The notes beneath the pieces are model-generated. The model was given only the letters and a program-made list of their open reading frames with translations. It was not told the DNA's origin and searched no databases. A program made the translations under genes and the position numbers. 64,000 nt of DNA from an uncultured Bacilli bacterium (GTDB taxonomy: Bacteria > Bacillota_I > Bacilli_A > RF39 > UBA660), in NCBI GenBank assembly GCA_910585045.1, contig CAJUCD010000003.1, positions 42,779-106,778 of the forward strand, read 5' to 3'. Each line of letters begins with the position of its first letter. Positions within the stretch are counted from its first letter, which is position 1. Positions 5,635 through 56,063 of this stretch are shown piece after piece.

Positions 5635-8400
5635 ATGGATGATATGAATTTACAAGAACAGTATGCAATACTAGAAAAAGAAAGGGAAGAAGATAAAAGA
5701 AAAACTATTATAATTATAATTTTATGTATTTTAATTATATTAATTACCCTATTAGGATTGTATTTTGCTTATTCTAATGTTGGTAAAACTTGTACTTTGA
5801 ATTGTGATACCAATGGTGATGGAATTCCTGATACTAACTTAGATATTGATGGTGATGGAATTTGTGATATTAATTGCTTGGTTACTGGTAAAGATGGCAA
5901 GGAATATATGATAAATATTGATTACAATGGTGATAGAAAAGCACATTTTAATGTTGATACTGATGGTGATGGAATTCCTGATGTTAACTTAGTTAATAAA
6001 GATATTAATGGTGATGGAATTTGTGATTTTAACTGTGATATTGATGGTGATGGAAGGCCAGATATTAATATTGATTTAGATAACACTAATACATGTGATT
6101 TAAATTGCGATACCAATGGTGATGGCAAACCAGATATTAATATTGATACTAATGGAGATGGTAAATGCGATCTTAACTGTGATACTACGGGAGATGGAAG
6201 ACCAAATATAAACATTGATACCAATGGTGATGGAAAATGTGATCTTAACTGTGATACTAATGGAGATGGCAAACCAGATATTAATATTGATATTGATGGT
6301 GATAAAAAACCAGATATTAATATTGATATCAATGGAGATGGTAAACCAGACATAAATATTGATACTGATGGTGATGGCAAACCAGATATAAATATTGATT
6401 ATGATGGTGATGGAAAATGTGATTTCAACTGCGATACTAATGGTGATGGCAAACCAGATGATAATCTTATGAATCAAGATACCAATGGCGATGGTAAATG
6501 CGATCTTAACTGTGATACAAATGGCAATGGTAAACCAGATATTAATATTGATACTAATGGTGATGGCAAACCAGACATAAATGTTGATACTAATGGTGAT
6601 GGTAAACCAGATATAAATATTGATGTTGATAAAGATAAAAAACCAGATATAAATGTTGATACCAATGGCGATGGTAAACCAGATGATAATCTTATGAATC
6701 AAGACACAAACGGTGATGGAAAATGTGATTTCAACTGCGATACTAATGGAGATGGTTTCCCAGATATAAATATTGATATTGATGGTGATGGCAAATGCGA
6801 CCTTAACTGTGACACAGATGGTGATGGCAAATGTGATGTTAACTGCGATACTAATGGCGATGGTAAACCAGATATTAATATAGATGAAACTGGCGATGGC
6901 AAATGTGACATCAATTGTGATACTAATGGTGATGGCAAATGTGATGTTAACTGTGATACAGATAGTGATGGCAAATGTGATGTTAATTGTGACACCAATG
7001 GCGATGGTAAACCAGATATAAATATTGATACCAATGGTGATGGCAAATGTGATTTCAACTGCGACACAGATGGTGATGGTAAACCAGATGATAATCTTAT
7101 GAATCAAGATACAGATGGTGATGGTAAATGTGATCTTAACTGTGATACTAATGGAGATGGAAAGCCAGATATAAATATTGATAATAACGGTGACGGAAAG
7201 CCAGATACTAATATTGATACTAATGGTGATGGCAAACCAGATATTAATATTGATGTTGATAAAGATGGTAGACCAGATGTTAATATAGACACAGATGGTG
7301 ATAAAAAACCAGATGATAATCTTATGAATCAAGATACCAATGGCGATGGCAAATGTGATCTTAACTGTGACACAGATGGTGATGGGTTCCCAGATATAAA
7401 TATTGATATAGATGGCGATAAAGTTTGCGATTTAAATTGCGATAATGATGGCGATGGAAAATGTGATCTTAACTGTGATACAGATGGTGATGGCAAACCA
7501 GATACTAATATTGATACAGATGGCGATGGAAAGCCAGATAAAGATATAGATAAAGATGGTGACGGCAAACCAGATACTAATGTGGATAAAGATGGCGATG
7601 GTAATTGTGATTTAAATTGTGATGTTGATAAAGATGGTGTATGTGATTATAATTGTGACACCAATGGTGATGGAATTTGTGATTATAATTGTACAACTAC
7701 TTTTGAAAAGAATGCTAATTTAAAATCATTAACTATAAATAATTATGCTTTAAGTCCAGTATTTAATGAAAACATTACTAGCTATACAATAAGAGTTGGT
7801 TATAATACAAATAAAGTTAATATTAAAGCTGTTCCTGCTAATCCTAAAGCTACAGTGACTGGTGATGGAGAAGTAGTTCTTACAGGTAGTACAACATATA
7901 CTTCAGTAGTTGTAACTGCAGAGGATGGTACTAAGAAAACATATAATATAACAATTATTAAGAGTGATAAACCTGGTACTTCTGAGGGTGGAGACGATAA
8001 TGATAAAGTTGAAATTGAAAATGGTTCTTTAATTGTTAATTATACAAAAGATATTAATGTTAATAATATTTATCCAAAATGGAGAGGTTCTCAAACATTT
8101 ACAATAACTAATAAATCTAAGTCAACTGTAACTTATAATATTAATTTGAAAAATGTTATAAATACATTTAATAGTGATGACTTTAAATATACTTTATTTA
8201 AGGATAATGTGGTTTTAGTTAAACAAACTCCTGCTCCTAGAAAAGATGGCTCTATATATCAAAACTTAGTTCTTGCAGCTGGTGAATCTGCTACATTTGA
8301 ATTAAGATTTGAGTTTGTAGAAACTGGAAAGCCACAAGATGCTGATATAGGAGTACGTTATTCTTCTAAAGTAGAAATTAGTATTGTGTCTGTAAATTAA
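5635..8400 (+). CDS. large secreted repeat protein. It has a SipW-type signal anchor, about 45 tandem acidic Ca-binding-type repeats (DxNGDGKPDINID / CDLNCD, resembling thrombospondin type-3 repeats), and a C-terminal cadherin-like Ig/beta-sandwich region.
   Basis: Protein reads ...LLGLYFAYSNVGKTCTLNCDTNGDGIPD..., then dozens of DTNGDGKPDINID and CDLNCD units, ending in ...NANLKSLTINNYALSPVFNENITSYTIRVGYNT... (cadherin-like). RBS AGGGAG at 5621-5626. The ATG at 5635 is the likely start; the track used a GTG at 5626. Confidence 0.8.
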   Translation: MDDMNLQEQYAILEKEREEDKRKTIIIIILCILIILITLLGLYFAYSNVGKTCTLNCDTNGDGIPDTNLDIDGDGICDINCLVTGKDGKEYMINIDYNGDRKAHFNVDTDGDGIPDVNLVNKDINGDGICDFNCDIDGDGRPDINIDLDNTNTCDLNCDTNGDGKPDINIDTNGDGKCDLNCDTTGDGRPNINIDTNGDGKCDLNCDTNGDGKPDINIDIDGDKKPDINIDINGDGKPDINIDTDGDGKPDINIDYDGDGKCDFNCDTNGDGKPDDNLMNQDTNGDGKCDLNCDTNGNGKPDINIDTNGDGKPDINVDTNGDGKPDINIDVDKDKKPDINVDTNGDGKPDDNLMNQDTNGDGKCDFNCDTNGDGFPDINIDIDGDGKCDLNCDTDGDGKCDVNCDTNGDGKPDINIDETGDGKCDINCDTNGDGKCDVNCDTDSDGKCDVNCDTNGDGKPDINIDTNGDGKCDFNCDTDGDGKPDDNLMNQDTDGDGKCDLNCDTNGDGKPDINIDNNGDGKPDTNIDTNGDGKPDINIDVDKDGRPDVNIDTDGDKKPDDNLMNQDTNGDGKCDLNCDTDGDGFPDINIDIDGDKVCDLNCDNDGDGKCDLNCDTDGDGKPDTNIDTDGDGKPDKDIDKDGDGKPDTNVDKDGDGNCDLNCDVDKDGVCDYNCDTNGDGICDYNCTTTFEKNANLKSLTINNYALSPVFNENITSYTIRVGYNTNKVNIKAVPANPKATVTGDGEVVLTGSTTYTSVVVTAEDGTKKTYNITIIKSDKPGTSEGGDDNDKVEIENGSLIVNYTKDINVNNIYPKWRGSQTFTITNKSKSTVTYNINLKNVINTFNSDDFKYTLFKDNVVLVKQTPAPRKDGSIYQNLVLAAGESATFELRFEFVETGKPQDADIGVRYSSKVEISIVSVN
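5790..7700 (+). repeat. in-frame coding tandem repeats (39-54 nt units) encoding D-x-[ND]-G-D-G-K-[PC]-D loops
   Basis: Highly periodic ggtgatgg(c/t)aaaccagat / tgtgat(c/t)ttaactgtgat units are visible in the DNA. Confidence 0.8.
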
Positions 8401-10609: not shown

Positions 10610-11209
10610 ATGAAGAAAAAAGAAGAGAAAAAGGAGTCATTTTTAAATAGAATAGCTTTAGATTTTAAGAAAAATTTGTTTGTAAGTATTATACTTAATA
10701 GCTTGTTTTTGGTATTTGGAATCTATATATATTTAAATCCAGTTCTAGCTGAGGAAGTTACAGGGATTATAATTGGTTTGTTTTTAATTGTTTTTGGTAT
10801 TTTTGATGCTTTTGAGTTTTTGACTAGAGGAAATAATTCATTATTTACTTTAAAAATATTTGTAGCTATTTTAGCTATTATTTTAGGAGTTTTTGTTATT
10901 GTTAATCCTTTTAGTATTGTGAAGATTTTATCATTTACTTTAGGAATATATTTAATTATTTTATCTATTTTTAAAGGTGTATTGTCATTTATTTTAAAGA
11001 AATATAAATTTGATGGATGGTTATTAGTTTTAGTAGTAAGTCTTATACTTTTAGTGTTTGGCATATTTATTACTATTAATCCTATGTCTTCTATATATAT
11101 AGTCGAGGCAGTAGCACTCTTTATTATTCTTTCTAGTATTTTAGAATTATGTAGTTTATTAATGCTTTATTCTAAGGCTAATGAAATAATAAAACTTTTA
11201 GAGAAGTAA
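10610..11209 (+). CDS. small multi-pass membrane protein, HdeD/DUF308-like
   Basis: Six hydrophobic helices with repeated G-x-x-x-I/L-x-x-G-I/L-F patterns and NP motifs. Confidence 0.35.
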   Translation: MKKKEEKKESFLNRIALDFKKNLFVSIILNSLFLVFGIYIYLNPVLAEEVTGIIIGLFLIVFGIFDAFEFLTRGNNSLFTLKIFVAILAIILGVFVIVNPFSIVKILSFTLGIYLIILSIFKGVLSFILKKYKFDGWLLVLVVSLILLVFGIFITINPMSSIYIVEAVALFIILSSILELCSLLMLYSKANEIIKLLEK

Positions 11210-18465: not shown

Positions 18466-18541
18466 GCTGAAATAGCTCAGTCGGTAGAGCAACGCACTCG
18501 TAATGCGTAGGTCGCAAGTTCGATTCTTGTTTTCAGCACCA
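18466..18541 (+). tRNA. tRNA-Thr (anticodon CGU)
   Basis: Cloverleaf readable: acceptor GCTGAAA/TTTCAGC, D-arm AGCTCAGTCGGTAGAGC, anticodon stem ACGCA/TGCGT with loop CTCGTAA, T-arm GGTCGCAAGTTCGATTC, 3' ACCA. Confidence 0.9.
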
Positions 18542-40219: not shown

Positions 40220-41725
40220 ATGAATAATAATGATAATAACAATGATGGGTTAAATGCGATATCTTTAGGAAGTGTAGATACAGGTAGTAATAATTCCAAT
40301 ACTAGTAGTATTCCAACTATAACACCTACAATTCAAGAACCTAAAAATGAAGAACTTAGCGTGCCAGAGCCTATAAGCGCAGATACTTCTAAAGTTGCAC
40401 TTGCAAATGATACTTCAACGTCGCTTGAGCCTGTAGCTCCAATTCCAATGGAAGAAATTCCTAAAGTGGATGGTATTCCCACGGGAGAAGTTTCTAATTC
40501 AGTTATAGAAGAACCAAAAACGACAGCAGATCAAAATTTAATGGCTTCGATTGATGCAATAAACGGAGATATTGGAAGTATGCCGCCAATTGGAGGAGAT
40601 ATGCCACCAGTGCCACCACTTGAACCTATAGCTCCAGTGCCTAAAGCAGAGGTTAAAGAAGAAGTTTTGGAACCAGTGGATCCTGTAGAATTTGATGTGC
40701 CTGAGACTATTAATAATTTTAATCCCTCAATCAATGAAATAGGAACTGTACCACCAATTCCTAATATTCCTATTATTGAGACTCCTACAGGAAGTCAGGT
40801 AGTTAAGAAAAAAAATAATAATAAAATCCTTTTTGTATTAATTATTGTCTTAGCTTTAGCAGCAGTGGCAGTTGGAGTTTATATTCTTTTACATATGACT
40901 CAGCCTAAAGCTGGTGTACAAGTTAAAAATGTAAAAATAGAAATTAATTCTAAAGTTTCAACAGATATAAAAGATTATGCTACATTTAATGGGATTGACC
41001 CTAGTTTGTGTTCTTTAGATACAACAGAGATTCCAAATGAACTTAATAAGATAAATGAGGAATATACATTTAAAATAAATTGTAATGAAACTACATATAC
41101 AGGTAAAGCTAAAGTTGTAGATACTACAGCACCAGAAGTTAAATTAAAGGAACTTACAGTACCAATAGATGGAAGTGTAAAACCTGAGGACTTTATCCAA
41201 GAATGTGTTGATGCTACAGAATGTTCTTATAGTTTTAAGGATGAAGAAAAGCTTAAAGAACAATTAAAAGAAGCAGCTTCTTATCATGTAGAAATTGTTG
41301 TAAGTGATACATCTGGTAATAAAAAGGAAGTTACAGCAACATTAATTGTAAGTGAGAAAGTATTTAAAGAAGCAGAATTGTATCTTACAGTTAATGCAAG
41401 TATTAATGGTCAATCTGTTATTTATAAATTAGGAATTGAAAATGGTAATTTTAATGAGTCAGCATTAAAAACTTATGTATTTAAAATTACTAATGATGAA
41501 GATTATAATAAATTAAAAAGTGATAGTGCTGGGAAATCAGAGATTGCTTATAATAATGTTACAGGATCTCCAACATTTAGTGATGTTGACAAGAGTGTAT
41601 CTATTTCACAAATTCTTGATTATAACGATTTGAATAAAGAAGAAAATACTACTTTGCCATTAACGATAGGTGATTTAAGAGCATATTATGAGAGTAAAGG
41701 TTATAGTTGTAGCTTAGGATTTTAA
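40220..41725 (+). CDS. hypothetical membrane-anchored protein: low-complexity Pro/Asn-rich N-terminal half, one TM, structured C-terminal domain
   Basis: Composition and hydrophobic segment VLIIVLALAAVAVGVYILL. Confidence 0.45.
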   Translation: MNNNDNNNDGLNAISLGSVDTGSNNSNTSSIPTITPTIQEPKNEELSVPEPISADTSKVALANDTSTSLEPVAPIPMEEIPKVDGIPTGEVSNSVIEEPKTTADQNLMASIDAINGDIGSMPPIGGDMPPVPPLEPIAPVPKAEVKEEVLEPVDPVEFDVPETINNFNPSINEIGTVPPIPNIPIIETPTGSQVVKKKNNNKILFVLIIVLALAAVAVGVYILLHMTQPKAGVQVKNVKIEINSKVSTDIKDYATFNGIDPSLCSLDTTEIPNELNKINEEYTFKINCNETTYTGKAKVVDTTAPEVKLKELTVPIDGSVKPEDFIQECVDATECSYSFKDEEKLKEQLKEAASYHVEIVVSDTSGNKKEVTATLIVSEKVFKEAELYLTVNASINGQSVIYKLGIENGNFNESALKTYVFKITNDEDYNKLKSDSAGKSEIAYNNVTGSPTFSDVDKSVSISQILDYNDLNKEENTTLPLTIGDLRAYYESKGYSCSLGF

Positions 41726-41746
41726 AAAAGCAGAAATGCTTTTTTT
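41726..41746 (+). terminator. rho-independent terminator (AAAAGCA-gaaa-TGCTTTT + T-run)
   Basis: Hairpin plus T-run immediately after the stop. Confidence 0.5.
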
Positions 41747-41794
41747 CATATATTTTTCACAAATTTGTTATAATATGTTTTAAGAGGTGATTAA

Positions 41795-42463
41795 ATGCAA
41801 ATTTTAGTATGTGATGATGAATCATTAATAAGGGATGTTATAAAAGAGTATTTATTAATTGAAAAATTTCAAGTTTTTGAGGCTTCAAATGGATTAGAAG
41901 CTATAGAAGTAGTTGCTAATAAAGATATTGATTTAGTAATAATGGATATTATGATGCCTAAAATGGATGGATATCAAGCTATAAAAGAAATAAAAAAGAT
42001 AAAAGATATTCCTTTTATTATGTTAACAGCACGTAGTGAAGAATTTGATAAATTGTTAGGTTTTGATATTGGAGCAGATGATTATGTTACAAAACCATTT
42101 TCACCTAAAGAATTAGTAGCTAGAGTAAAGGCTGTAACAAAAAGATTTCAAAATGAAGAAATTAGTTTTGTTTATGAAGATTTAGTTTTAGATGATTTAG
42201 CTCATGAGGTTAAAGTAGATGGAGAAATTATTGATTTGACACCAAAAGAATATGAGCTTTTAAAATATTTTATGCAAAATAAAAATATTGCTTTATCAAG
42301 AGATACTATTTTATCAAATATTTGGGGTTATGATTTTTATGGTGATGAGAGAACAGTTGATACACATGTTAAAACACTTAGAAATAATTTAGGAAAATAT
42401 CGTGATAATATTAAAACTGTTCGAGGAATGGGGTATAAGTTTGAAGTTAAAGAGAAAAACTAA
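41795..42463 (+). CDS. OmpR/PhoB-family response regulator
   Basis: Receiver domain (VCDDE, DLVIMDIMMPKMDG, phospho-Asp) and a winged-helix C-terminus. Confidence 0.9.
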   Translation: MQILVCDDESLIRDVIKEYLLIEKFQVFEASNGLEAIEVVANKDIDLVIMDIMMPKMDGYQAIKEIKKIKDIPFIMLTARSEEFDKLLGFDIGADDYVTKPFSPKELVARVKAVTKRFQNEEISFVYEDLVLDDLAHEVKVDGEIIDLTPKEYELLKYFMQNKNIALSRDTILSNIWGYDFYGDERTVDTHVKTLRNNLGKYRDNIKTVRGMGYKFEVKEKN

Positions 42464-43829
42464 TAGTATTAATTTTAAAACGTTAGTTTATTTAGTAGCT
42501 TTTAGTGTTACGATATTACTTTTTTTAATATTTTCTCAAAGTATTTTATTAAAATATTCTTATGAAAGATATCAAACTGATAAGATTAAGAAAATTGTAA
42601 AGTCAGTACAGGATTATGATGCAGATGATATTTTTCATAATTTAGAAACGTTAGTTTATGATAATAGTGTATGTGCGCAATATATTTTTGATGGTGGAAA
42701 TAATATTTCTTATAATACTTTAATGGTTGGCTGTGGGCTTAATAAAAATAATACACAAATTGTTGAACTAATGAATAATATTATGTCTGATAATAAGGAT
42801 GTACAATATATAAAATTGATAAATAAAAAAACAGATACAAAAGCTATTTTAACTGGTATTAAGGTAGATAAAGGGTATTTATTTATATATTCTCCTTTAG
42901 AAGATTTAGCAGGGGCTAATATTGTTCTTAGAAGTCAAGTTATTTTTATTACTTGTATAGTAATAATTCTTGCTTGTTTTATATCTTATTTTTTATCTAA
43001 TAAAATTACAGACCCAATAATGAAAATTACTCGTAAGGCTAAGGAATTAGGTGAAGGAAATTATAATATTGAGTTTGATTCTAGTGATGTATTAGAAATT
43101 GATGAACTGGCTAATACTTTAAATCATGTAAGTAGAGATTTATCAAAGATAGATGAACTTAGACGAGACTTGATGGCTAATGTATCTCATGATTTAAAAA
43201 CTCCTTTAACTATGATTAGAGCTTATGCTGAAATGATAAGAGATATCTCTTATAAAGATAAAGTAAAAATGGATAAAGATTTAAGTGTTATAATAGAGGA
43301 AACAGAGAGACTAAATGTATTAGTTAATGATATTTTAGATTTGTCTAAGATGCAAGCGGATGCAGATAGTCTTAACATTGAGCAGTTTGATTTATGTGAG
43401 CTTATTAAGGAAGTTATGAGAAGATATGATATTTTAAAAACAACAGAAGATTATAATTTTATTATGGAACTTCCTGATAATGCTAAAGTTAGTGCAGATA
43501 AGCAAAAGATGATGCAAGTTATTTATAATTTAATTAATAATGCTATAAATTATACTGGTGATGATAAAAAGGTATTTATAAAAGTTAGTAAAGTTAAAAA
43601 AGAATATTTAGTGGAAATTAAAGATACTGGAAAAGGAATAAAAAAAGAAGAAATTCCATATATATGGGATAAATATTATAAAAAAGATAAGAAACATCAA
43701 AGAAATGTAGTTTCGACAGGAATTGGCTTATCGATTGTAAAAGAAATTCTTACTAAGCATAAATTTGATTATGGTGTAAAGAGTGTTCCTAAGAAAGGTA
43801 CAACATTTTATTTTAAAATTAAGAAGTAG
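42441..43829 (+). CDS. sensor histidine kinase (HAMP, HisKA, HATPase_c)
   Basis: H-box ANVSHDLKTPLTMI and N/G boxes (NLINNAINYT, DTGKGI, STGIGLSIV). The start is uncertain: TTG at 42441 or ATG at 42402. Both overlap the regulator gene. Confidence 0.8.
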   Translation: MKLKRKTNSINFKTLVYLVAFSVTILLFLIFSQSILLKYSYERYQTDKIKKIVKSVQDYDADDIFHNLETLVYDNSVCAQYIFDGGNNISYNTLMVGCGLNKNNTQIVELMNNIMSDNKDVQYIKLINKKTDTKAILTGIKVDKGYLFIYSPLEDLAGANIVLRSQVIFITCIVIILACFISYFLSNKITDPIMKITRKAKELGEGNYNIEFDSSDVLEIDELANTLNHVSRDLSKIDELRRDLMANVSHDLKTPLTMIRAYAEMIRDISYKDKVKMDKDLSVIIEETERLNVLVNDILDLSKMQADADSLNIEQFDLCELIKEVMRRYDILKTTEDYNFIMELPDNAKVSADKQKMMQVIYNLINNAINYTGDDKKVFIKVSKVKKEYLVEIKDTGKGIKKEEIPYIWDKYYKKDKKHQRNVVSTGIGLSIVKEILTKHKFDYGVKSVPKKGTTFYFKIKK

Positions 43830-43886
43830 TAATGTGTAAAGCTTTAAAGTTTCATATAAATAACACAATTTGCACACAATAGAGTG

Positions 43887-44215
43887 GTATACTTATAAAC
43901 ATGAAAGGAGAAGTGATATTTAATAGACATACACACTTTATAAACCTAAAATAAAGAAAAATAACATATAAACTCAAACTCACACTTTTTAAGAGAAGGA
44001 TATAATCTTCTCTTTTGTTTTTATTGTAAATCATAATAGTTTCACTATTAGTTCACAAATATTTCACATTGATAAAGTATACTTATAAACATGAGAGGAG
44101 AAGTGATATTCAATAGACATACACACTTTATAAACCTATACAAAAAAAATAACATATAAACTCAAACTCACACTTTTTAAGAGAAGGATATAGTCTTCTC
44201 TTTTGTTTTTGATTT
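43887..44215 (+). repeat. tandem direct duplication (2 copies, period about 191 bp, about 93 % identical), each copy ending in an intrinsic terminator
   Basis: Copy 1 tatacttataaacatgaaaggagaagtgatatttaatagacatacacactttataaacc...aagagaaggatataatcttctcttttg. Copy 2 is the same with a few substitutions. Terminator hairpins at 43991-44022 and 44179-44210. Confidence 0.7.
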
Positions 44216-44264
44216 TTTAAATTATTTGTGGTATTATTGTTTATAAAAGAAAGAAGTGTGGTTT

Positions 44265-45884
44265 ATGCAAACATTTATTTTTGGACATCGTAATCCTGAT
44301 ACTGATAGTGTTTGTTCAAGTATTGCTTTGTCTTATTTGATGAATGAAGATGGGGCTAATACAGTACCTAAAGTGTTAGGGCATTTGAATGCTGAAACAA
44401 AATTTGTTTTAGATTATTTTAAAGTAAAAACTCCTGATTATTTAAATGATACAAAAATTCAGATTAAAGATATAAAATATAATAAAAAAGCAGTTATAAA
44501 TGAAAGTAAATCTATTAATGATGCTTTTGCTTTAATGCAAAAAGAAAATGTTACTGCTTTACCAATAATTGATTTAAAAAAAGTATTAAAAGGTTTTGTT
44601 ACTTTAAAGGAAATAGCTAAATATTTGATTAGTGAAGAAAAGGATCTTGTTGATACAAGTTATGATAATGTTTTAAACAGTCTTGATGGTAGAGCTATTG
44701 TTAGAGCAAATGATGATGTTAAAGGTAAAATTTTGGTTGCTTCTTATAAAAGTAAGACTTTTTTTGAGGAAGTAACTCTAACTCATAATGATATTTTAAT
44801 TGTGGGTGATAGATATGGGATTATTGATTATGCTATTGATTCTAAGGTGAAATTGATTGTTCTTACTGGTAATCATGAAATTCCTAAGAAGCTTATTAAA
44901 AAAGCAGAAAAAAATGGTGTTAATATTATTGTTAGTAAGTATGATAGTTTTGAGAGTACTAATAAAGTAATGCTTAGTAATAAAGTTATTTCCATTAATA
45001 TTAATGTAAAACCTGTAACTATTAATTATAAAGCTTTTAGAACTGATTTTCTTAGTTTAGCTCAGAAATCTAATCACACTCATTATCCTGTTATTAATAA
45101 TAAAAATGAATGTTTAGGATTACTTAAAATAACTAGCGTTGATAATTTCCAAAAACAAAAAGTGGTTATGGTGGACCATAATAGTTTTGCTCAAAGTGCT
45201 ATTGGTATAGAAGAAGCGGAAGTTATTGAAATTATTGACCATCATAATTTAAGTGCTATTGGTACTAATGTGCCTATTAACTTTAGAAGTATGCCTGTTG
45301 GTTGTACTTGTACTATTATTTATAATATGTTTGTAGAAAAAAAGATTGCCATACCAAAATATATTGCAGGTTTAATGCTTAGTGCAATTTTGTCTGATAC
45401 TTTGGTTTTTAAATCGCCTACAACAACTAATGAAGATATTTTTGCAGCAAGTAAATTAGCAAAATTGGCTAAAATAGATATTGATAATTATGGATATCAA
45501 ATGTTTAAAGCTGCTTCAAGTGTAAAAGGTATTAGTGTTAATGATTTAATTAATCAAGATTTTAAGTCTTATAATGTGGGTAATTATCAAATTGGTATTA
45601 GTCAAGTTATGACTATGGATTTTAATGAAATTGAAGAAAAAATTGATGAATATATTGAGAGATTAAATGATATTAAAAATGGTAGTTATTTGTGTGTAGT
45701 TTTATTTATTACAGATGTTTATAAGAATGGCTCTTATGTAATTTATAATAATGATGCAGAGGATATTATTTTAGATGCATTTGATTTAAAAGATGTAAAA
45801 GAAGGTATTTATATTCCTGATTTAGTTTCAAGAAAGAAACAGATGCTTCCAGCTTTGTTAGAGGTAATAGAAAAGCGTGTATAG
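44265..45884 (+). CDS. ppaC: manganese-dependent inorganic pyrophosphatase, CBS-domain-containing family II (DHH, CBS pair, DHHA2)
   Basis: N-terminus IFGHRNPDTDSVCSSIA (DHH motif I); CBS region in the middle; DHHA2 C-terminus. Confidence 0.8.
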   Translation: MQTFIFGHRNPDTDSVCSSIALSYLMNEDGANTVPKVLGHLNAETKFVLDYFKVKTPDYLNDTKIQIKDIKYNKKAVINESKSINDAFALMQKENVTALPIIDLKKVLKGFVTLKEIAKYLISEEKDLVDTSYDNVLNSLDGRAIVRANDDVKGKILVASYKSKTFFEEVTLTHNDILIVGDRYGIIDYAIDSKVKLIVLTGNHEIPKKLIKKAEKNGVNIIVSKYDSFESTNKVMLSNKVISININVKPVTINYKAFRTDFLSLAQKSNHTHYPVINNKNECLGLLKITSVDNFQKQKVVMVDHNSFAQSAIGIEEAEVIEIIDHHNLSAIGTNVPINFRSMPVGCTCTIIYNMFVEKKIAIPKYIAGLMLSAILSDTLVFKSPTTTNEDIFAASKLAKLAKIDIDNYGYQMFKAASSVKGISVNDLINQDFKSYNVGNYQIGISQVMTMDFNEIEEKIDEYIERLNDIKNGSYLCVVLFITDVYKNGSYVIYNNDAEDIILDAFDLKDVKEGIYIPDLVSRKKQMLPALLEVIEKRV

Positions 45885-48868: not shown

Positions 48869-48942
48869 TGGAGGGGCCTACCGGATTTGAACCGGTGCTC
48901 AGGGAGTTGCAGTCCCTTGCCTTACCGCTTGGCTAAAGCCCC
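48869..48942 (-). tRNA. tRNA-Cys (anticodon GCA)
   Basis: Reverse complement GGGGCTTTAGCCAAGCGGTAAGGCAAGGGACTGCAACTCCCTGAGCACCGGTTCAAATCCGGTAGGCCCCTCCA: anticodon loop CTGCAAC, T-arm GGTTCAAATCC, 3' CCA. Confidence 0.85.
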
Positions 48943-55977: not shown

Positions 55978-56063
55978 GCTTGTGTGGCGGAATGGTAGAC
56001 GCACCAGACTCAAAATCTGGCGAGGTCAAACTCGTGTGGGTTCAAGTCCCACCACAAGCACCA
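55978..56063 (+). tRNA. tRNA-Leu (anticodon CAA), class II with a long variable arm
   Basis: GCTTGTGTGGCGGAATGGTAGACGCACCAGACTCAAAATCTGGCGAGGTCAAACTCGTGTGGGTTCAAGTCCCACCACAAGCACCA. Anticodon loop CTCAAAA, T-loop GGTTCAAGTCC, 3' CCA. Confidence 0.9.

Follow-up and report, generated by a model that had tools for sequence, protein, structure and literature searches.

Two tandem units downstream of a two-component system in an RF39 Bacilli genome are probable regulator-activated small RNA genes

What is the function of the 435-nt gap between the stop codon of a histidine kinase (HK) gene (43829) and the ATG of a CBS-DRTGG family II inorganic pyrophosphatase (PPase) gene, ppaC (44265), in a 64,000-nt stretch of DNA (the window) from an uncultured Bacilli bacterium of the RF39 lineage? 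The gap is wholly filled by two tandem units. An earlier note on this DNA had described them as a 191-bp duplication of about 93% identity in the leader of ppaC, each copy carrying a Shine-Dalgarno (SD)-like sequence, a peptide-leader-like mini-open reading frame (ORF), and a strong terminator, and had proposed a duplicated attenuator or small-RNA locus. These parts are present: two units of ~190 nt with an identity of 0.92 over their predicted transcribed parts, SD-like sequences followed by mini-ORFs of 17 codons (ATG at 43901) and 22 codons (ATG at 44091), and two terminators recovered by a scan, each with a 9-bp stem and a T-run, where none is expected from 50 shuffles. We consider it probable, from comparison of sequences, that the units are two independent small RNA (sRNA) genes of about 120 nt, each with its own promoter and terminator, which would be activated by the response regulator (RR) encoded together with the HK in the two-component system (TCS) immediately upstream.

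Linkage of the units to the two-component system

The most conserved stretch of the units, the 21-mer ATAAACTCAAACTCACACTTT, was searched for as an exact match in 185,579 species genomes. This 21-mer of the invariant block is present in at least 119 species-level genomes. The counts given below (72 upstream regions, 73 or 124 units, 88 loci, and so on) are of distinct sequences, in family sets among the matches listed. Among these matches, the carriers are all uncultured low-GC gut metagenome-assembled genomes (MAGs) labelled Bacilli, Tenericutes, or Mycoplasmatota, apart from misbinned contigs; examples are Mycoplasma sp. CAG:776, Coprobacillus sp. CAG:605, and Ca. Coprovivens. We infer that they represent the RF39-type lineage. 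A Bacilli-type locus was also seen in MAGs labelled Phocaeicola vulgatus or Muribaculaceae (Bacteroidales) (L058, L070, L087, and L092), and these labels look like bin contamination.

Orthologous RR (58–85% identity) and HK (48–81%) genes lie directly 5′ of the element, on the same strand, in about 110 of the 119 loci among the matches listed. The exceptions are contig ends and one locus, L101, in which the unit faces the opposite way from the TCS and still has its boxes, the promoter repeats described below. Four loci that were found through HK homologues (67–78% identity) are syntenic, with a single copy of the element right after the HK stop. When metagenome loci were selected by the HK protein, blind to the RNA, all 12 with an HK of ≥50% identity carried the element, with 0–2 changes in the invariant block, and it was not found at the loci of unrelated kinases in the same set. 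The downstream side is variable. The PPase gene is the downstream neighbor only where the HK is ≥66% identical, that is, in one sub-clade. Elsewhere, the element is followed by a gene for a small multidrug exporter in 28 loci and for Dus in 8 loci, and in others by one for a histidine phosphatase, an isochorismatase, or a hypothetical protein. The downstream genes make up over 25 unrelated clusters, and six loci have theirs on the opposite strand, convergent with the element. The constant RR and HK upstream, the changing genes downstream, and the agreement of the HK-selected loci together indicate that the element belongs to the TCS, not to ppaC.

Promoters, transcript anatomy, and coding potential

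The order in the promoter of a unit is fixed. TGTAAA lies about 16 nt upstream of the first of three TTCAC(A)-like pentamers, the boxes, which have an exact 11-bp period, and after a further 10 nt comes a −10 element. The −10 element varies over the family (TATACT, TAATAT, or TATCAT) and is followed by 7 nt ending in C before the unit start. The three TTCAC pentamers score at least 12 of 15 in 61 of the 72 distinct upstream regions, while only 2 of 3600 shuffles reach 12, and the first pentamer is at −48 or −49 from the unit start in regions with full motif scores. Similar repeats precede the RR gene, where TTTCAT-N6-TTCACA with an extended −10, TATAAT, is kept in 85 of 88 distinct loci (counted at a score of ≥10 of 15; shuffles mostly give 7–9). 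Within the window, a strict dual box occurs only at the RR-HK operon promoter and at copy 2. Because the same repeats occur at both the operon promoter and the sRNA promoters, we suggest that they are binding sites of the adjacent regulator, and that the RR-HK operon is probably autoregulated through its own two TTCAY repeats. TGTAAA (43835–43840 and 44025–44030), which is the inverse of the PHO-box-like hexamer TTTACA, is found 16 nt before the first box in most orthologous units.

The predicted transcript begins with a purine block found throughout the family, AUGAAAGGAGAAGUGAUA. A variable middle of 30–90 nt separates it from a second conserved block, CUAUACAA, which is 5′ of a near-invariant, unstructured block, AAUAACAUAUAAACUCAAACUCACACUUU, adjoining the terminator. 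Together, about 55 nt in these three blocks are almost invariant across species in which the HK is only ~50% identical. The 5′ block could pair with a Bacillus-type 16S rRNA 3′ tail over 13 bp with −16.8 kcal/mol, compared with −7.8 to −14.0 kcal/mol for 14 real genes. In Bacilli, a strong SD sequence at the 5′ end stabilizes a transcript even where a start codon is absent (PMC3997798).

A hairpin with a T-run closes 119 of 124 distinct units (median −10.2 kcal/mol), with 103 different hairpin sequences. In a model-based alignment of 109 matches, pairing in the terminator helix is 92.9% (shuffles, 80.3%), and there are 127 double-change cells (shuffles, 38). The covariation is 0.539, against 0.293 when shuffled (reached in 0 of 500), and falls to 0.20–0.29 when the helix is slid; compensatory changes are seen at seven of eight pairs. 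With its hairpin, U-tract, and compensatory changes, the element thus ends in an intrinsic (Rho-independent) terminator, and these changes in the hairpin show selection at the RNA level. This bears on the possibility that the units act as DNA, as a regulator array, an operon terminator with promoter debris, or a recombination site, with an RNA that has no function of its own. The clearest motifs are indeed DNA motifs, the direct repeats and the −10, and the terminator would also serve the HK operon. However, besides the compensatory changes, the most conserved blocks are inside the predicted transcript, 3′ of the promoter, which is not expected for an activator's DNA site, and whole promoter-to-terminator modules are duplicated in at least 14 other species. 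We regard a purely DNA-level element as very improbable. Clostridial VirR boxes were set aside by eye for their wrong spacing, and likewise a dif/Xer site, since the dyad arms are absent and such a site is inconsistent with promoter-terminator modules and duplicates.

Could the units encode small proteins? The candidates would be a leaderless MKGEVI... peptide on the plus strand and a hydrophobic MLFFLYRFIKCVC... peptide that begins opposite the invariant block, on the minus strand. On the plus strand, an ATG stands exactly at the predicted transcription start in 62 of 73 distinct units, which is what a leaderless gene would need. However, the remaining 11 have no ATG there, the ORFs run for 6–24 codons, and MKGEVI is the only part shared. 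Over these six codons there are 3.1 changes per first or second position and 3.6 per third position, with no third-position excess, and therefore the constraint is on the RNA. On the minus strand, copy 2 has a 35-codon ORF, and many relatives have hydrophobic ORFs of 20–45 codons, opened by the ATG opposite the invariant block. Over the family, however, these ORFs range from 3 to 45 codons, each of the three frames is used across the 5′ block, spacer lengths differ by non-multiples of 3, and no promoter or terminator logic is seen on that strand. Thus, the minus-strand hydrophobic ORF was rejected as a gene, as its frame is not conserved. The units are noncoding on both strands, and a small-protein function is highly unlikely. 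A likeness between the mini-ORF and the PPase N-terminus (VIFNRH and FIFGHR) was also dropped because the mini-ORF past codon 6 is missing in relatives.

The same observations decide on the reading of the units as a cis leader of ppaC. On that reading, read-through of the two terminators would be controlled by an alternative fold or by translation of the mini-ORF, which is plausible for this window. The units are on the same strand directly 5′ of ppaC, with an SD-like sequence, an ATG, and terminators, and the ppaC start region of this species has a 7+6-nt match to the invariant block. Nevertheless, ppaC adjoins the element in one sub-clade only, with unrelated and in six loci convergent neighbors elsewhere, and the mini-ORF is not conserved. 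A conserved antiterminator cannot form, since the blocks upstream are invariant and the arms of the terminator change freely. ppaC also retains its own extended −10 promoter 3′ of terminator 2, and TGgTAT(T/C)AT is kept 5′ of ppaC in L011–L013. In L011 and L012, 130–600 nt of inserted DNA, including an extra ORF, separate the element from ppaC. Of what a leader-peptide attenuator would be expected to have, we found no conserved leader ORF with regulatory codons, no antiterminator pairing (RNAalifold), and no constant downstream gene. A ppaC leader is accordingly hardly credible, and an annotation as such, although plausible, is wrong. Of the earlier proposal, the small-RNA half is supported, while the attenuator, the peptide leader, and the ppaC leader are not. 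Orthologous loci are mostly single copy and do not conserve the mini-ORF, as would be expected had the proposal been wrong altogether, but they do conserve the hairpin.

The insertions themselves differ. In L012, a 166-aa ORF with no recorded Pfam match (5658–6158) lies between the sRNA terminator and ppaC, while L011 has about 130 nt of unrelated extra sequence in this position. A suspected third partial unit at the ppaC promoter and leader was rejected; its likeness consists of generic extended −10 and SD features, which are present in single-copy relatives too.

Proposed function and relation to known RNAs

The features expected of a trans-acting sRNA gene, namely a predicted promoter of its own, a terminator, lack of coding capacity, and conservation independent of the neighboring gene, are all found. 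In the mechanism that we propose, the phosphorylated OmpR/PhoB-type RR would bind the three TTCAC(A) repeats, with 11-bp spacing, in the −35 region, where they end 10 nt before the −10. Binding would activate transcription of the sRNA, and through the same repeats before the RR-HK operon the system would regulate itself. Because there is no terminator between the HK stop and the unit, the sRNA terminator probably doubles as the operon terminator, and the RNA may also arise as a 3′-untranslated-region-type product of the operon. The 5′ purine block, a "super Shine-Dalgarno" sequence without a meaningful ORF, probably binds 30S subunits and so would shield the 5′ end from decay. The single-stranded, CA/U-rich invariant block is the likely effector. 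It probably pairs with mRNAs, possibly at translation-initiation regions, and the candidate pairing stretch is AACAUAUAAACUCAAACUCACACUUU.

Several observations weigh against this proposal. Both the RNA and its start site are predicted from sequence, and the assignment of the boxes to this regulator is drawn from their co-occurrence at the two promoters. Structure beyond the terminator is not better than in shuffles (z of −0.3 to −0.5), and the only other consensus helix from RNAalifold, the 6-bp, long-range GAAGUG/CACUUU, is invariant and does not covary. The start region of ppaC pairs with the invariant block with −13.9 kcal/mol, which ranks third among 63 window genes; however, this pairing is not conserved in 23 species of the ppaC clade (median −9.9 kcal/mol; shuffled seeds do equally well in 5% of trials). 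Shuffled seeds also bind start regions as well as the real invariant block does. Finally, the conserved length, ~29 nt plus two blocks, exceeds a simple seed and may leave room for a protein- or ribosome-binding role.

Two candidates were rejected on this evidence. The long-range helix is invariant, and the changed second copies of L066 and L073 have no compensation. The ppaC start region is not retained as a conserved sRNA target, with its pairing unconserved in the 23 related species. A riboswitch also finds no sign here, with the fold no better than shuffles and the terminator as the sole covarying helix. The invariant block holds CAU ... CUC ... CACACUUU and pairs with some start regions, but shuffled seeds pair equally well. 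In all, about 1 Mb of neighboring DNA and the window were scanned for targets, and a screen of 933 start regions from the neighboring DNA gave nothing convincing. The best neighbor family encodes a hypothetical protein, with a median of −13.4 kcal/mol from only seven start regions. A widespread family of 238-aa proteins had a median of −11.1 kcal/mol, also not convincing; by its N-terminal sequence, this family is putatively YebC-like.

These results have to be weighed for another role of the RNA, sequestration, in which a regulator-induced RNA would act through its 5′ end as a decoy for the 16S anti-SD (a 30S "sponge") or through the invariant block as a protein platform. The anti-SD pairing of the 5′ block is stronger than that of 14 of 14 real gene SD regions, the three blocks of ~55 nt are almost invariant even where the HK is ~50% identical, and no specific, conserved mRNA target signal was found in the start regions screened. 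On the other hand, one or two RNAs of ~120 nt would need extreme abundance to titrate ribosomes, a strong 5′ SD already has a simpler known role as a stabilizer, and no protein emerged as a candidate partner. Moreover, ordinary base-pairing sRNAs such as OmrA/B and GcvB can have long single-stranded regions that are conserved. We therefore hold sequestration to be unlikely, while giving it more weight than the DNA, protein, and leader alternatives. Somewhat less likely still is a specific form of it. An almost unstructured TCS-induced RNA, with a 13-bp ideal-SD mimic and a ~29-nt block that binds a ribosome or protein, could be a signal-dependent decoy in a reduced-genome gut lineage, possibly for a phosphate-type signal in view of the PhoP-like box.

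How does the regulator-activated sRNA that we prefer compare with known RNAs? With Rfam 15, the region 43700–44400 gave only chance matches at E ≤ 10 (15–21 bits, against gathering scores of 49–80), so that the Rfam scan proposed in the earlier note returned no family for it. At the gathering score, the whole window has three tRNAs only, and L141–L143 have no match. No description was found in the literature, which was searched for this sequence and for small RNAs of RF39. The sRNA family is new, with no Rfam or literature match, while its kind, a TCS-activated and sometimes tandem sRNA, is well known. Less usual for this kind are the fixed place of the gene at the 3′ end of the TCS operon, the "super-SD" at the 5′ end of the RNA, and the length of the invariant block.

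LhrC1–5 of Listeria monocytogenes (LisRK) and OmrA/OmrB of Escherichia coli (EnvZ-OmpR) are tandem sRNA paralogues with a promoter and terminator each. They are activated by OmpR-family TCSs and have conserved ends or seeds with a variable middle, as here. Unlike the present units, they are not adjacent to their TCS genes, they have different seeds (UCCC loops in LhrC and the 5′ end in OmrA/B) and chaperone dependence, and their targets are known.

The CiaRH-dependent sRNAs (csRNAs) of Streptococcus are noncoding genes of 51–202 nt with several paralogues per genome (Marx et al. 2010, PMC3091779), and their unpaired region was proposed to pair with SD and AUG regions (PMC3091779). The likeness is in the layout: in place of the −35 there is a direct repeat, bound in csRNA genes by an OmpR-family regulator, with its end 10 nt from the −10; a C precedes the start, and an intrinsic terminator follows (PMC3091779). 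The terminator, which in csRNA genes is within 250 nt of the −10, is at ~120 nt here. The CiaR box, NTTAAG-N5-TTTAAG, is absent; its two half-sites are replaced by TTCAC(A) three times, with a similar spacing logic. There is no sequence similarity and the lineage is another one, and, unlike csRNA genes, the gene here is fixed at the 3′ end of a TCS operon and has a 5′ SD-like block without a 5′ stem-loop.

The PHO box of Bacillus subtilis PhoP is given in PMC11870197, which cites Eder et al. (1999), as TT(A/T/C)ACA-like hexamers with an 11-bp period. By that summary, the boxes here, TTCAC(A/T), TTCACA, and TTCA(C/T)A with an 11-bp period, are similar, with three boxes (two at the operon promoter) instead of the four of the PHO box. 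The kinase here differs from PhoR of the PhoPR system in lacking a cytoplasmic PAS domain between HAMP and HisKA, and the NCBIfam scores of the regulator and the kinase are all under the equivalog cutoffs. No pst genes with TTCAC boxes were seen in the 64-kb window. The 5′ block also resembles STAB-SD sequences (cryIIIA etc.), in which a strong SD-like sequence stands near the 5′ end without a functional ORF (PMC3997798). These were described for mRNA leaders, not for sRNAs, and by this analogy a stabilizer role here is suggested.

Gene regulation is almost unstudied in this abundant, uncultured, small-genome gut Bacilli lineage. Here, a conserved module of a regulator and an sRNA can be defined from sequence: a probable DNA box of the regulator, probable autoregulation, and a dedicated sRNA, which is among the most conserved noncoding sequences at the locus. 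For annotators, this gives a new RNA family with alignments and a covariance model (R1); for experimenters, it gives a compact test system of a box, a regulator, and a ~120-nt RNA.

In the clade with an HK of ~50% identity, a GC-rich element of ~90 nt lies 3′ of the sRNA terminator (L141, ~2690–2790; also L142, L143, L145, and L146). It is strongly structured, with three hairpins, the last of them a terminator, a minimum free energy of −38.7 kcal/mol (z = −5.8), and no Rfam match. It may be a second, unrelated small RNA.

The tandem duplication and the surrounding locus

The features of the locus are collected in Table 1. The duplication consists of two direct-repeat families, 43887–43968 with 44077–44158 (spacing 190) and 43954–44022 with 44142–44210 (spacing 188). 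In the alignment, a 2-nt indel shifts the register between them, giving a single tandem duplication of ~190-nt units. The promoter parts, 43830–43886 and 44020–44076, are alignable with a much lower similarity. Core 34- and 40-mers occur exactly twice each in the window, where none is expected from shuffles. The family profile (nhmmer) recovers the two copies, at E = 2.6e-22 for copy 1 and 6.1e-26 for copy 2, and no further paralogue in the window, and the covariance model R1 gives 64.4 and 62.6 bits. With two 190-nt units and no spacers, this is not a CRISPR array, as had been noted before. The same intergenic sequence, with at most one single-nucleotide difference, is found in nine other metagenome or MAG contigs with an identical PPase that span the gap. 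A tenth contig (L010, ERZ13692153 NODE_1213) begins within copy 1, at about window position 43932, which is probably an assembly break at the tandem repeat.

Table 1. Features of the RR-HK, sRNA, and ppaC region, in window coordinates
Feature	Position	Strand	Details
RR-HK operon promoter	41745..41774	+	TTCAT-N6-TTCAC direct repeats 41745-41760, 8 nt, extended −10 TGtTATAAT 41766-41774
OmpR/PhoB-family RR	41795-42463	+	Pfam
HAMP-HisKA-HATPase HK	start 42402 or 42441, to 43829	+	Pfam
Copy 1 promoter (predicted)	43835..43893	+	TGTAAA 43835-40; TTCAT 43851-55, AACAC 43862-66, CACAC 43873-77; extended −10 TGgTATACT 43885-43893
sRNA copy 1, predicted ~120-nt transcript	43900..44023	+	SD-like 5′ block CAUGAAAGGAGAAGUGAUA 43900-43918
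Copy 1 block 2, degenerate	43945-56	+	CCUAAAAUAAAG
Copy 1 invariant block	43960-43990	+	AAUAACAUAUAAACUCAAACUCACACUUUUU
Copy 1 terminator hairpin	43991-44014, T-run to 44023	+	
Copy 2 promoter (predicted)	44025..44083	+	TGTAAA 44025-30; perfect TTCAC x3 at 44041-45, 44052-56, 44063-67; 10 nt; −10 TATACT 44078-83
sRNA copy 2, canonical, predicted ~120 nt	44090..44211	+	5′ block 44090-44108
Copy 2 block 2	44135-44143	+	CCUAUACAA
Copy 2 invariant block	44148-44178	+	
Copy 2 terminator	44179-44202, T-run to 44211	+	
ppaC own promoter-like site	44209..44237	+	TTGATT, 17 nt, TATTAT, TG upstream; 3′ of terminator 2, outside sRNA units
CBS-DRTGG family II PPase (ppaC)	44265..45884	+	Pfam DHH / CBS / DRTGG / DHHA2

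Copy 2 is the canonical unit, with boxes scoring 15 of 15. Copy 1 has diverged: its boxes score 10 of 15, its −10 is of the extended type (TGgTATACT), and its CUAUACAA block is degenerate. Tandem doublets were found in at least 14 species-level genomes besides the window species (loci L034, L039, L057, L066, L068, L073, L074, L083, L084, L106, L120, L130, and L131), with a triplet in L028, and nearly all of these species are from the ppaC sub-clade. In the other doublet species, the copy with degenerate boxes, and with slight changes in its invariant block, is usually the downstream one; the window shows the reverse, with copy 1 decayed. In the evolution of the module, the sRNA has thus been duplicated in tandem repeatedly, while the regulator boxes of one copy decayed. 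The nearest relative of each window copy is the other copy (0.92, compared with 0.89–0.91 to orthologues), yet the junction motif TGTAAATCAT is common to the window and the second copies of L034 and L120. Because of this, two histories are compatible with the sequences: the window duplication may be old and homogenized by gene conversion, or it may be recent.

By Pfam, the genes 5′ of the units are, in order, those of a 501-aa protein, the RR, and the HK, and 3′ of them are the PPase gene and then a short-chain dehydrogenase gene. The best NCBIfam matches of the RR and HK are PhoB, WalK, and PnpS, with every score under its cutoff; for the RR, the top NCBIfam match is PhoB and the top PDB match is RegX3. 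The 501-aa protein (40220–41725) has no Pfam or NCBIfam domain, and it is kept at this position (37–48% identity) only in the ppaC sub-clade. The three tRNA genes that are the sole Rfam matches in the window are at 18466–18538 (+), 48872–48942 (−), and 55978–56060 (+). About 4.7 kb 3′ of ppaC, there is a strain-variable island, at 10725–13620 in L001 and at 10782–12890 in L002–L008, which are of the same species. In most strains, it holds an ApeA_NTD1/HEPN_Apea gene and an HD-domain gene, while in L001 small ORFs and a Mob_Pre relaxase take their place.

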